Below are positions 2,315 through 9,170 of a stretch of DNA of 64,000 nt, one piece after another (positions within the stretch are counted from its first letter, which is position 1; the number at the start of each line of letters is the position of its first letter). This stretch comes from a virus, in the IMG/VR virus record IMGVR_UViG_3300033571_019687, positions 32,001 through 96,000 of that record; one strand, given 5' to 3'. A program made the translations under genes and the position numbers. The notes under the pieces were generated by a model. The model had not been told where the DNA came from. It saw only the letters and a list, made by a program, of their open reading frames with translations, and made no database searches.

Positions 2315-3097
2315 TTAACTCAAAAAGTCATTATCTATATATGGATTTTCTTCAATATCATCATCTTCACTTTCCAATTGTGCATCCATTAATTCCATTT
2401 TTGTTAATTCATAGAACATTTTAAATCTCTTTAATGCTTTCCTTAACGACTTTGTATCAAGCATTGTTAAATCTCTTAATATTCTCAATGCATTGTTTTT
2501 ATTGAAGTTATTAGAATTTTTTACCGTTTCATCAAAGTCAAATAATATCTCCCAATTTTGGAATATATGTATAATTGCTGTACCCACTTTAAATTCATGT
2601 TCGGTCAAATCAGGTTTAGCAACCTCCAACTTCATAGCTTCTGTAATATCGCTAAAAAGTTTTTCCTTATCTATTTCCTTATCATCTAATTCATAAGTCA
2701 ACTCAGGTTTTGTCATTAAATCCGGTAAAAAAACATCAAAATCTAAAACTTTCTTTGTTCTTTCATCAGCTTTCTTTTTATCATTCATTGCTTGATTTCT
2801 AGCAATGGTACCAAAATAAGAATAGGATTTATGACCGAGCGAGTTATTAAATTTAGGAAACTTACAAATCAATTCACCAAGTACATCGGCATGTTGTTCA
2901 CTAAAATCAATATCTGTTCGTCTATTACGATATGTATTGATTATAGCCTCTACTAATGTTCTGAACGGTCTATCAAGATGTTCATTCCATATTTTACTTC
3001 TTTTAACGTGATCTTCTGTATTAAGATACTCTATTACTGCTAATTCAGTATCTTCATCATAATAATTACCACCTTTTTTTACTTTACCTTTAGGCAT
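2315..3097 (-). CDS. Phage sigma factor, T4 gp55-like late sigma (probable start ATG 3097, MPKGKV)
   Basis: YYDEDTELAVIEY...FPKFNNSLGHKSYSYFGTIARN resembles the sigma region-2 pattern of gp55 (NFDETKYKNPHAYITQAC); acidic C-terminal tail; ATG overlaps the upstream stop by 8 nt. Confidence 0.65.
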   Translation of the reverse strand: MPKGKVKKGGNYYDEDTELAVIEYLNTEDHVKRSKIWNEHLDRPFRTLVEAIINTYRNRRTDIDFSEQHADVLGELICKFPKFNNSLGHKSYSYFGTIARNQAMNDKKKADERTKKVLDFDVFLPDLMTKPELTYELDDKEIDKEKLFSDITEAMKLEVAKPDLTEHEFKVGTAIIHIFQNWEILFDFDETVKNSNNFNKNNALRILRDLTMLDTKSLRKALKRFKMFYELTKMELMDAQLESEDDDIEENPYIDNDFLS

Positions 3098-3902
3098 AAT
3101 TTTCTGGAATATCAATATCTCTGTCTTTGGTATATTTACATTCAGTTCTAGCAACTTCAAACCAGAATTCTGACTCCTGAGCAGATTTTATTTTAATACT
3201 GTCGTCATTAGCGTATTGCCAAATCAACGATCCATCTCTATTGATTGTATGTCTGTAACCAATTCTAGGTACAATAAACATTTTATATCCTTTATTTAAC
3301 ATTCTAAGAATAAATTCATAGTTAAAAGTGAATTTAATATTTCTCTTAAGACCACCTAAACTTCTAAACATTTCAGTATTAATAATAGCACCTGTAAATG
3401 TAAAATCTGGCCAACCTTTAACAAGTTCAAAATCAGGATAACCTACTTCATCAACTTGACCTTTGGCCCAACCAATTTGATTTACAAGCTGCTTAATAGT
3501 TTTAGTTTTATGATCAAACAATGCGGTTAGTGGTACAAACATATCACCAACATTTTCGCTAGAATATGACTCAAATGTCTCAAACCATTTATCTGCGAAC
3601 TCATCATCAAATTCAAGTACAGTAAAATATTTCGTTTTGACCGATTTTACTGTAACATTAATATGATCTTGGAATAATTTTTTAGTAGTAAATTGAACTT
3701 CACCACTTAAACCATCCGGAAATTTATAATCTGTAAAATACTTCTTATTTTCGTTTGTATTTGTTACCGATATGATAACTTTTGGTTTTAAAGTGTTTTT
3801 AACTAAACTATTCACGGCAGCAGCAAATAGTTGATCAAATTCACCTTCAACACTATGAACAGGAATAATAACTGTTAAATCCATAATATTAGTTTGTTTC
3901 AA
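3090..3902 (-). CDS. Glycosyltransferase, GT-A fold (GT2-like)
   Basis: N-terminal LTVIIPVH, KYFTVLEFDDEF (DxD-like), FNYEFILRM and YRH motifs. Confidence 0.8.
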   Translation of the reverse strand: MKQTNIMDLTVIIPVHSVEGEFDQLFAAAVNSLVKNTLKPKVIISVTNTNENKKYFTDYKFPDGLSGEVQFTTKKLFQDHINVTVKSVKTKYFTVLEFDDEFADKWFETFESYSSENVGDMFVPLTALFDHKTKTIKQLVNQIGWAKGQVDEVGYPDFELVKGWPDFTFTGAIINTEMFRSLGGLKRNIKFTFNYEFILRMLNKGYKMFIVPRIGYRHTINRDGSLIWQYANDDSIKIKSAQESEFWFEVARTECKYTKDRDIDIPENYA

Positions 3903-4962
3903 AATTGGCTTTTATTTTTTCTAGCATATCAATCTTATCACTAACAATAAGGTCATATACTTTTTTAACGTTTTCATTAAACTTATCTTCTGTATAAAGA
4001 CCTGCAACCAAATCTTTAACATTCGAATAATCTTTTAGTTTATCATCACAATTTAACCATGCAGTAATATATGCTGATAAAATACTTAACATTTGAATAT
4101 GGTCTTTAACCCAAATACCATTTTGATCAGAGTACCATTCTGCTGAAATATCGGCAGGTCTTGCAATGATAGGTACATTACATTTATTAGCCTCGATAGG
4201 AAATGTACCAAAAGATGAGATAGGGTCATCCCACAAAGCTACCATACAAGTATCAAGCATGTCAGCCATAGTCTCTTCACTTAACCCGTGAAAATCAATA
4301 AAAGTAAAGAATGCTAAATGTGGATATTTATCATAGAACATTTTAATAAATCTCCTAGTTTTTCTTTTACTTCTAAAATGAATACCAATATTAGGTAATT
4401 TTGCTTTTCGTTTTTCAGTAAACATACTTGGAATCATAGGATTAATAACTTTTACATCTTTAATACCATGCCATGTTTTAATTAATTCAGCTAAAGTATC
4501 AGTTGTTGTAATAGCTTTATCTATACCTAGATATGACCATTTATCTGTAAAATCCAGACCTTCACTAACATATTCAAATGAGTTAATGAATAAAATTTTG
4601 GTACAGTTAATACCTTTCTCATTAAGAGTTTTAATAATTGATGCATATAACTCAGGTACGATAATAATATCACTACTTTTAATCTCAAAAGATTTACCGT
4701 CCATAGTATAATGCGGAAGTTCTTCCACAAATTTTTTATCCATCCATAGATCAACTTTATCCATTTGATCTAACTCTAGCAACATAACCACGTTAAAACC
4801 ATGATTCTTTAATGATAATGCATTTCTATAAAGATTAGATACTGTTGCCATAGGAGCACCTTTAGTATCTGGAATTACAAAGACAAATTTATAATCACCA
4901 TCTTTGTAATTTTGTATCATTGTATTGATACCATTTAACGTTTCTAATTTTTTGTCTTCCAT
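3889..4962 (-). CDS. Glycosyltransferase, GT-B fold (GT4-like)
   Basis: C-terminal SFGTFPIEANKCNVPII resembles the EGFGLPPLEAMACGVPVI signature; two-domain Rossmann-like pattern. Confidence 0.7.
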   Translation of the reverse strand: MEDKKLETLNGINTMIQNYKDGDYKFVFVIPDTKGAPMATVSNLYRNALSLKNHGFNVVMLLELDQMDKVDLWMDKKFVEELPHYTMDGKSFEIKSSDIIIVPELYASIIKTLNEKGINCTKILFINSFEYVSEGLDFTDKWSYLGIDKAITTTDTLAELIKTWHGIKDVKVINPMIPSMFTEKRKAKLPNIGIHFRSKRKTRRFIKMFYDKYPHLAFFTFIDFHGLSEETMADMLDTCMVALWDDPISSFGTFPIEANKCNVPIIARPADISAEWYSDQNGIWVKDHIQMLSILSAYITAWLNCDDKLKDYSNVKDLVAGLYTEDKFNENVKKVYDLIVSDKIDMLEKIKANFETN

Positions 4963-4972
4963 TTTAGATTAG

Positions 4973-7902: not shown

Positions 7903-7926
7903 AATACTGTATTTTAGTTACAGTAG

Positions 7927-7958
7927 CAAATTTAGTGATTATTTTTCACATAACCAAA
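7927..7958 (-). promoter_or_regulatory. Bacteroidetes-type primary-sigma promoter
   Basis: Minus strand: TTTG (7958-7955), 20 nt, TAAATTTG (7934-7927); exact -33/-7 consensus. Confidence 0.7.
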
Positions 7959-7964
7959 TTTCAC

Positions 7965-9170
7965 TTAAAAAAAAGTTTGATAAACTTCATGTCTAAGTGT
8001 TGATACATTTCTAAGATCATATTTTTCTTTGACTGTATCGTATAACGCCAACCCTAATCTTTTGGCTTCGTCTCTATTATACGCTAAGTATTTTATAAAT
8101 TTAGCCCACTCTTTAGCATTCTTATTCGGTTTAACCAATAGAGAATTACCTTCACCATATTGACCTTCACCTTTATATGCAGATACTAGATCTTGTTTAT
8201 ATGGACCAAATTCAGAAGCTATGATAGGTAATTTATGGAAACCAGATTCAAGAACTTTAAGATTACTTTTATATGTATTGAACTCAAAATCTTTAAGAGG
8301 CGCAATAACTAAATCCAAATCATTATAATTACTAGCATATTCATTTACAGGTTTAGTCCATACTCTCTTATATGCAGTATCGTCATCATTCATTTTAACA
8401 GATCTGTCAAACAATAATAGACTGTTTAGATAAGCCCTATCATTACTATCTACTGTCCTATAATTATCAGTTACAATAGCTTCATAGTTAGCCCATACTG
8501 AAATTGGGATTTTTTTACCTCTTACTTCATAATATTTAGATACCCCTCTTAAGTCAAATCCACACAATACGAATTGTAAATCATTCTTAAACTCCTTTGA
8601 TAATATATTAACAACACCATCAATAAGTTTTAAATCTTGCAAGTGACTTGAACCAGCAACGTAACCAATTCTAAATCTTTTAGATTCAGTTGGGTTATGA
8701 ACAAATTGTTTTTCTTCCGGATTTATTGCATTTGGAATAACAAATACATTTTTGTTGATTGGGTATATTTTCTCTTTAAGAGCCTCAGTTGAACAAGTAA
8801 CAAAATCAGCGACCTTAAGTGTTTCTATAATATATGATGCAATATTATTTTTCATGAAAAATTGGTAATAAGGGTGCATGTGATCTAATACCCAATAATC
8901 ATCTGTATCTATAATAACCTTAATACCAAGGCTTTTAATAAACTCAATTAATGGTTTAGATTTTTCATAAGTTTGACCGGCAATTTTTTGAAAAATAACA
9001 GCATCGTATTTTTTAAGTGACTCAATATCATTAAAGTCGAATGTTGATGAAACATCTATCTTATATTCGTCTGGATATAGTTCATCTAACATAATATTTG
9101 GGTCAGTCATTCTGTACTTATCAGTACCCCCTTGTGGACCATTTGATACTACTACTAAAATTCTCTTCAT
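7965..9170 (-). CDS. Glycosyltransferase, GT-B fold (GT4-like); probable start ATG 9170 (MKRILVV)
   Basis: KVIIDTDDYW, RIGYVAGSSH, DLVIAPL...FNTYKSNLKVLESG...PIIASEFGPY. Confidence 0.8.
   Translation of the reverse strand: MKRILVVVSNGPQGGTDKYRMTDPNIMLDELYPDEYKIDVSSTFDFNDIESLKKYDAVIFQKIAGQTYEKSKPLIEFIKSLGIKVIIDTDDYWVLDHMHPYYQFFMKNNIASYIIETLKVADFVTCSTEALKEKIYPINKNVFVIPNAINPEEKQFVHNPTESKRFRIGYVAGSSHLQDLKLIDGVVNILSKEFKNDLQFVLCGFDLRGVSKYYEVRGKKIPISVWANYEAIVTDNYRTVDSNDRAYLNSLLLFDRSVKMNDDDTAYKRVWTKPVNEYASNYNDLDLVIAPLKDFEFNTYKSNLKVLESGFHKLPIIASEFGPYKQDLVSAYKGEGQYGEGNSLLVKPNKNAKEWAKFIKYLAYNRDEAKRLGLALYDTVKEKYDLRNVSTLRHEVYQTFF

Follow-up and report, generated by a model that had tools for sequence, protein, structure and literature searches.

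Viruses documented to build sugar coats on their own particles include mycobacteriophages, algal viruses and giant viruses but, to our knowledge, no phage infecting a Gram-negative host. In Chlorovirus PBCV-1, soluble cytoplasmic enzymes of the GT-A type, encoded by the virus and expressed before the capsid protein, glycosylate the virion independently of host secretion. Che8-type mycobacteriophages are said to have been shown, in work by Freeman et al. in 2023, to coat their virion proteins using their own glycosyltransferases (GTs), with glycans on the C-termini of capsid and tail tube proteins, and the genes involved reportedly lie in or beside the structural module. Here we focus on three GT genes, named GT-A, GT-B1 and GT-B2, in a 64,000-nucleotide stretch of phage DNA (hereafter the window; bases 32001-96000 of the 133,874-bp IMG/VR contig IMGVR_UViG_3300033571_019687, designated G000 and estimated 43% complete), and on the possibility that their products glycosylate the virion of the phage that encodes them.

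Two previously described systems stand closest to this locus in gene content and in enzyme family. The ‘moraphages’ are large aquatic T4-related phages of Bacteroidota with predicted Flavobacteriia hosts (Arch Virol 2025, PMC12619734), with a core gene set in which four putative GTs appear beside a sigma factor, PhoH, dUTPase and ClpA; the paper leaves the function of the GTs open between DNA and virion (PMC12619734). On the enzymatic side, AmGGT and its homologues of the Agt type are retaining UDP-glucosyltransferases, soluble enzymes that lengthen glucose chains on acceptors that are either oligosaccharides or cytoplasmically glycosylated adhesins (PMC12159676).

As the best single reading of the data, and a tentative one, we propose that the GTs of this phage glycosylate its own virion proteins, with the acceptor, the sugar, the timing of expression and the order of action all inferred. 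Soluble, nucleotide-sugar-dependent GTs, three in the window and one elsewhere on the contig, would O-glycosylate those virion proteins that face outward, such as the decoration domains of the sheath, the fibres and a LamG protein, at the Ser/Thr of an over-represented [S/T]-G-x-T tetrapeptide. GT-A or GT-B2 would attach the first sugar, and GT-B1 together with its paralogue would extend the glycan. GT-B1 and GT-A are probably made before the late genes, so that the enzymes would already be in the cytoplasm by the time virion proteins are synthesised. These candidate enzymes are core genes of an abundant uncultured lineage of large aquatic phages, represented by hundreds of IMG/VR contigs, and come with a testable attachment motif. 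If the proposal is true, it would reveal a novel, clade-wide and sequon-directed sugar coat on virions infecting Gram-negative hosts, a new layer in the interactions of phages with hosts and with grazers or immune systems (particle stability, adsorption, masking), and a sequence-based rule for predicting which virion proteins carry glycans.

Identification of the glycosyltransferases

GT-A gave no Pfam match on its own at E ≤ 0.01; its family counts 342 database homologues, many of which, at 35-40% identity, carry a precomputed PF00535 assignment. The two aspartates D93-D94 of its LEFDDE sequence (DxD) are invariant in 30 homologues. A search of its AlphaFold model (predicted local distance difference test, pLDDT, 91.9) against the PDB with Foldseek returned top matches that were all GT-A/GT2 enzymes (E about 1e-11 to 2e-9; template-modelling score, TM, ~0.6), the best being 6p61, CgT 5hea, WrtF, RmlT and TarP. 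Enzymes of PBCV-1, which are cited as a structural match of phage GT-As (bioRxiv 10.1101/2023.12.21.572611), did not appear in the list of top PDB matches of GT-A. Based on the predicted structure and the homologues, we consider both fold and family of this GT-A/GT2-like enzyme secure. The family has a median isoelectric point (pI) of 4.9 and no transmembrane-like stretch.

GT-B1 scored 18.0 bits against PF00534, under the cut-off of 26.4. Its family profile matched the GT4 enzyme AmGGT (PDB 8xsg), its only clear solved relative, over residues 46-337 with an E of 3e-19 (7e-6 when the single sequence was used), at an identity of only ~20%. An FGTFPxE segment is conserved in the family, and the second Glu of the EX7E motif (E257) is invariant. 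Soluble and acidic (median pI 4.96), GT-B1 can be securely assigned, from this profile match, to the GT4-like GT-B enzymes as distant kin of the Agt/AmGGT glucosyltransferases. Outside the window, a local hidden Markov model search detected a fourth GT, a GT-B1 paralogue (contig 123983-124993) that clears the PF00534 threshold at 36.4 bits; its stop overlaps a gene of 226 amino acids (aa), itself followed by ClpP (G000:C1:123983-126245).

GT-B2 matched phrog_7162, annotated ‘glycosyltransferase’, with an E of 1.5e-44, while its Pfam GT4-like score (20.5 bits) stayed below the threshold of 27. A profile search of the PDB with GT-B2 found nothing, and its model (pLDDT 88.8) found best PDB matches that were all GT4-type GT-B enzymes (GlgM, PglA, MshA, HepE, PimB' and BshA). 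With 2398 homologues and this predicted fold, its assignment as a GT4-like GT-B glycosyltransferase appears secure. Distant homologues of GT-B2 occur in phapecoctaviruses, in Campylobacter phages and in a 735-kb phage (LR756501) where it is the only one of the genes represented, with no sigma homologue. The phapecoctavirus Escherichia phage nepoznato (NC_052658.1 104046-107190) has, beside primase/helicase, a row of four genes that are each annotated as a glycosyltransferase; two of the four in this phapecoctavirus cluster are GT-B2 homologues, and we found no paper on the function of the cluster.

No membrane-like segment was detected in GT-A, GT-B1 or GT-B2. The preliminary description of the window, made from the sequence alone, had proposed one GT-A and two GT-B enzymes; their open reading frames (ORFs) are present at the coordinates given, on the minus strand, and homologues, profiles and models all agree with the proposed classes. 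It had also proposed that they form an initiator plus elongator set: the elongator role fits the kinship of GT-B1 with Agt/AmGGT, and GT-A and GT-B2 are the candidate initiators.

Distribution across related phages

Searching IMG/VR with a GT-A profile recovered at least 535 related stretches, 81 loci of which were kept for neighbourhood counts. GT-B1 lies directly upstream of GT-A in 80/81 of these loci and a sigma-like gene directly downstream of GT-A in 76/81, an order kept at just 30-40% identity. PhoH lies upstream of the GT pair in 42/81 loci, and a gene of the NT5C-like family adjoins GT-B1 in 11 loci. Related contigs reach 362 kb, and all three GT families are present in the two complete relatives, G001 (362,603 bp, with terminal repeats) and G002 (334,326 bp).

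No homologue was found when GT-A and GT-B1 were compared by tblastn with 50,697 phage records. One blastn match (4709-4827) to the Bacteroides phages DAC19 and DAC20 was rejected as spurious, being on the strand opposite the annotated gene and having no tblastn support; thus no cultured relative carries the GT-A/GT-B1 pair. Judged by the sheath protein, the closest phages in culture are T4-like, such as Pelagibacter phage HTVC008M (29% identity). The lineage in which these GTs are core genes is a large one of T4-like aquatic phages ranging from 130 to >360 kb, ‘moraphage’-like and probably infecting Bacteroidota. Another relative has three NAD-dependent epimerase/dehydratase genes in a stretch of 11 kb (G004:C1:188748-199732), and one such gene occurs in G001, which suggests, from gene content, an accessory tailoring of nucleotide sugars in some members.

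A tetrapeptide enriched in virion proteins

The [S/T]GxT motif occurs 96 times in the contig where 22 occurrences were expected (z = 16), while six control patterns (SGxS, SAxT, TxGS, NGxT and others) stay at ~1x. Eleven of the hits were Walker-A loops (SGKT/TGKT), which we afterwards excluded by restricting the motif to [S/T]G[^K]T. In this form, it is found twice in 18 recognised enzymes (2.3 expected) and 83 times in all other ORFs, recognised virion proteins included (18.5 expected). The excess lies in the window from 11941 to 64000 and beyond it. It recurs at 2.85x in G001 (40% GC) and 4.04x in G002 (25% GC), and at 2.5-2.7x across 160 related loci, and such persistence in genomes of contrasted base composition makes it a feature of the peptides and not of the nucleotides. 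Within the sheath, 20 homologues carry 149 motifs over 56 columns of a gap-rich variable region, and none in the conserved C-terminal core. In the window, the N-terminal decoration region of the sheath (about 18394-19400) holds four motifs in a span of 60 residues, and a protein of 123 aa (41582-41953) holds three.

The enrichment announced by the preliminary description thus proved real, specific and clade-wide, and it also appears to track the presence of the GTs. A distant relative of 484 kb (LR756508.1), which has a sigma homologue (5.6e-33) and none of the three GT families, shows the motif at 1.32x and no enriched protein. Together with the solubility and strong acidity of GT-A and GT-B1, and with the membership of GT-B1's nearest solved relative in a family that elongates protein glycans in the cytoplasm, this enriched, specific and GT-associated excess favours the proposal that virion proteins are the acceptors.

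Several observations weigh against this proposal. The co-occurrence of GTs and motif, suggested earlier as a check, does go in the expected direction (1.32x as against 2.9-4.5x in GT-carrying genomes), but it amounts to a single phylogenetic contrast, confounded because three related GT-positive genomes are set against one distant GT-negative genome; a sheath-based search for close relatives lacking the GTs yielded nothing but short contigs from within the clade itself. Even in LR756508.1, the sheath holds 3 motifs for 0.6 expected, and T4-like phages lacking the GTs show a mild excess in their virion modules (1.2-2.0x). Fibre-like proteins of ~930 aa in G001 (G001:C1:213871-216681) and G002 (G002:C1:126264-129047) contain 30-31 copies of the motif each. 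In fibres, it is set within units of ~18 residues (e.g. FNTY-TGTT-APATY..K) and tandem repeats of ~100 residues, where it could be a beta-turn of the fibre fold, and hence structural. Furthermore, no initiator of the GT41 family (PF13844, NGT/HMW1C-type) was found in genomes G000-G005, in a search whose control matched 2 reference genomes, and neither the capsid-like nor the tail tube protein bears a Ser/Thr-rich C-terminal tail. In GT-B1, the first Glu of EX7E (E223 in AmGGT, where it is important) is replaced by Ser, Thr or Gly, with an invariant Asp nearby. Finally, the GT genes sit outside the structural module, among PhoH, NT5C-like, dUTPase and HD-like genes.

A quite different acceptor comes next in likelihood, namely host envelope glycans or lipid-linked precursors (for superinfection exclusion or to mask receptors), a metabolite in solution or a protein outside the virion, with the [S/T]GxT excess then being an unrelated structural trait of the fibres and decoration domains of the lineage. 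The closest folds are indeed those of GT2/GT4 enzymes acting on polysaccharides, teichoic acids, glycolipids and small molecules (TarP, RmlT, WrtF, PglA, PimB', MshA, BshA, GlgM), and AmGGT favours free oligosaccharides over glycopeptides (PMC12159676). The nucleotide-sugar genes of some relatives (one in G001, three in G004), the early gene block in which the GTs lie and the location of the motif in fibre repeats also speak for such an acceptor. This explanation is, however, at odds with the lack of a membrane-like segment in all three enzymes, two of them very acidic, and with the status of these genes as core and strictly sigma-linked across a deep lytic lineage, which would be unusual for genes of host-surface conversion. 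It also leaves unexplained why the motif excess is specific to the clade and to its virion proteins, and we regard it as possible, if doubtful.

DNA as a possible acceptor

Glycosylation of the phage genome, as performed by the alpha- and beta-glucosyltransferases of T-even phages and by more recently described DNA-modifying GT-A and GT-B enzymes, would allow evasion of restriction or CRISPR, and several traits of the locus recall it. The GTs lie in a context of nucleotide metabolism (PhoH, NT5C-like, dUTPase and HD-like genes), the T4 gene order runs 55, a-gt, 47, 46, and the phapecoctavirus homologues of GT-B2 belong to a four-GT cluster beside primase/helicase. Proven DNA GT-As, too, have TarP-like GT-A folds as their closest matches in the PDB (bioRxiv 10.1101/2023.12.21.572611).

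Against these resemblances, the genomes lack the known enzymes that could prepare a base for glycosylation. Genes of the ThyA family (PF00303), of TET/JBP (PF12851) and of C5-methyltransferases (PF00145) are absent from G001 and G002, both 100% complete, in searches where the PF00303 profile found both positive controls, T4 td and the dCMP hydroxymethylase gp42. The contig does encode a ThyA, 22 kb upstream of the window, but this is a canonical thymidylate synthase that retains the catalytic Cys, the Asn that specifies dUMP and the DTHLY sequence, and whose best match is E. coli ThyA (4e-59). The earlier statement that no base-modifying partner is present in the window therefore stands, and extends to the absence of DNA-hydroxylating genes from the two complete relatives. 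The window also holds a dUTPase gene and two degenerate nucleotide-hydrolase-like genes. Neither the beta-GT family of T4 (PF09198) nor its alpha-GT family (PF11440) was found in any of six genomes, both searches being without a positive control, and two hhalign profile comparisons with T4 alpha-GT gave a probability of 0.1%. The strong acidity of GT-A and GT-B1 points in the same direction, although T4 alpha-GT is mildly acidic too; with a pI of 6.1 for that enzyme, isoelectric point was rejected as a discriminator of DNA enzymes and kept as weak evidence only.

In addition, the genomes carrying these GTs show an extreme avoidance of six-base palindromes, mostly C- and G-containing sites, which implies, indirectly, restrictable DNA. 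Wholly absent are 7/51 palindromes in G000, 24/56 in G001 (with up to 89 sites expected) and 6/50 in G002, as compared with 0/54 in 71 kb of T4, and with well under 1% of non-palindromic six-mers in the GT-carrying genomes themselves. For instance, the 134-kb G000 lacks TCTAGA (24 expected), CTGCAG, CAGCTG, CCATGG, GCTAGC, GTGCAC and GACGTC, and CTAG is absent altogether from the 363-kb G001. Palindrome avoidance is an established sign of selection by type II restriction on cleavable DNA, and we therefore infer that the DNA of these GT-carrying genomes is cut by restriction enzymes. Glycosylation of the DNA thus appears unlikely. More generally, DNA modification should not be the default reading of GTs found among nucleotide-metabolism genes in a T4-like phage, since these genomes have none of the known routes to a base that can be glycosylated, and purge their restriction sites in the manner of unmodified DNA.

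Genomic context and expression

With a GC content of 28-30%, the window codes for the sheath, tube and baseplate proteins of a contractile tail as well as for UvsX-like and Mre11-like replication/recombination proteins. From 16980 down to 39, all genes are on the minus strand. Transcription would run through GT-B2, a 200-aa protein, dUTPase and a 93-aa ORF to a strong terminator-like hairpin, and after it through PhoH, NT5C-like, GT-B1, GT-A, the sigma-like gene, a CTATTTA element and genes for proteins of 118 and 632 aa (Table 1).

Table 1. Coordinates of the features around the glycosyltransferase genes, in window positions and in order of minus-strand transcription
Feature	Position	Strand	Description
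GT-B2	7965..9170	-	GT4-like GT-B, 401 aa; ORF open to TTG at 9191
200-aa protein	7300..7902	-	between dUTPase and GT-B2; weak HD phosphohydrolase-fold lead
dUTPase	6837..7298	-	PF00692 E 2e-24; phrog_135 E 3e-47
Intrinsic-terminator-like hairpin	6504..6532	-	13-bp stem and T run; separates the dUTPase unit from the PhoH/GT unit
PhoH-like ATPase	5678..6442	-	PF02562 E 7.6e-61
Host-type promoter-like site upstream of the NT5C-like gene	5640..5669	-	consensus scan, 10/12 positions; lead only
TATATTTG	5638-5645	-	TAnnTTTG match, part of the promoter-like site before the NT5C-like gene
NT5C-like (5'(3')-deoxyribonucleotidase fold) protein, p215	4973..5620	-	first gene of the p215-GT-B1-GT-A-sigma unit
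GT-B1	3889..4962	-	GT4-like glycosyltransferase, 357 aa
GT-A	3090..3902	-	GT-A fold, GT2-like; 270 aa from TTG, 264 aa from ATG at 3884
Sigma-like factor	2315..3097	-	260 aa; Sigma70_r2 in homologues
CTATTTA element (candidate late promoter)	2307..2313	-	just past the sigma gene, ahead of the 118-aa and 632-aa genes

A gap of 4 nt separates GT-B1 from GT-A, which overlaps the sigma-like gene by 8 nt, and no terminator-like site was found from 5620 to 2315. Such spacing argues for the co-transcription of GT-B1, GT-A and the sigma gene, and a single operon also comprising the NT5C-like gene is supported by the layout of the sequence. GT-B1 and GT-A had been described as lying directly upstream of, and apparently co-transcribed with, the sigma gene, which matches both this layout and the gene order seen in 76-80 of the 81 related loci.

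The description of the sigma gene as gp55-like, by contrast, holds in part. Sigma70_r2 was recognised by Pfam in 17/26 homologues of its product (best E 6e-5), whereas the protein of the window itself had no match, and its PDB profile matches were weak (0.056 for SigA region 2, 0.88 for T4 gp55). A sigma-like factor is thus plausible from the homologues, and a putative orthologue of gp55 at most.

None of the GT genes is directly preceded by CTATTTA, and on this ground they appear to belong to a pre-late expression class, a timing that would fit the need for the sigma factor ahead of the late genes. Promoter assignments are leads only, as neither pattern is enriched: CTATTTA occurs 16 times for 35 expected overall, and TAnnTTTG (the Bacteroidota -7 box) 116 times for 114 expected in the window. 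The block as a whole looks like an early one devoted to nucleotide metabolism. The two small proteins between the GT genes, NT5C-like and of 200 aa, resemble nucleotide hydrolases. The first has no Pfam match; its feature and structure neighbours in the atlas carry PF06941 (NT5C), and its usual N-terminal Asp motif is degenerate or lost. The second has no Pfam or PHROG match, and PF01966 occurs in 12-29% of the members of its atlas neighbours. Downstream of the sigma gene and behind CTATTTA, the proteins of 632 aa (39-1937) and 118 aa (1934-2290) have no family match; the gene for the former holds the same position after the sigma gene in 31/81 related loci.

Proximity to the late sigma gene, pointed out in the preliminary description, does not speak for a virion target: the DNA alpha-GT of T4 adjoins gene 55, so that a position beside the sigma gene is uninformative on the target and gives the virion proposal no help. 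The near-universal and tight linkage, with start/stop overlap of GT-A and the sigma gene over deep divergence, could mean that GT-B1 and GT-A, being soluble and cytoplasmic, glycosylate the transcription apparatus itself (host RNA polymerase, phage sigma or co-factors) during the early-to-late switch. The ADP-ribosylation of RNA polymerase by T4 Alt and Mod offers an analogue in logic. Glycosylation of this kind has no known precedent, however, conserved gene order in T4-like cores is often functionally meaningless, and both the motif excess of the virion and the other two GTs would be left unexplained, making this a very improbable role.

Comparison with known systems

By description, the phage fits the moraphages: alongside its four GTs, the contig encodes a sigma factor, PhoH and dUTPase, together with ClpP and a Clp-ATPase-like protein. 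The moraphage paper (PMC12619734) describes neither the operon of GT-B1, GT-A and sigma nor the lack of DNA-hydroxylating genes, the avoidance of palindromes or the motif.

The likeness to the alpha- and beta-GTs of T4 is one of setting, with early phage GT genes and an alpha-GT adjoining the late sigma gene 55. There is no similarity in sequence or profile, no hydroxymethylase accompanies the GTs, and restriction sites are avoided here and not in T4. Closer in family are Actinobacillus Agt, an alpha-1,6-glucosyltransferase, and AmGGT (PDB 8xsg/8xsh), with which GT-B1 shares homology along almost its entire length; of these, Agt extends glucose on already glycosylated proteins (PMC12159676). 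Unlike that NGT/Agt system, the phage genomes have no GT41 initiator, and the first Glu of EX7E is replaced in GT-B1.

PBCV-1 differs as a eukaryotic virus whose glycans are N-linked at atypical sequons. The mycobacteriophage system shares with the one proposed here, from genes alone, the principle of phage-encoded GTs that would coat virion proteins in the cytoplasm, whereas in this lineage the candidate sites are dispersed tetrapeptides, the GT genes are part of an early block and the phages infect Gram-negative hosts.

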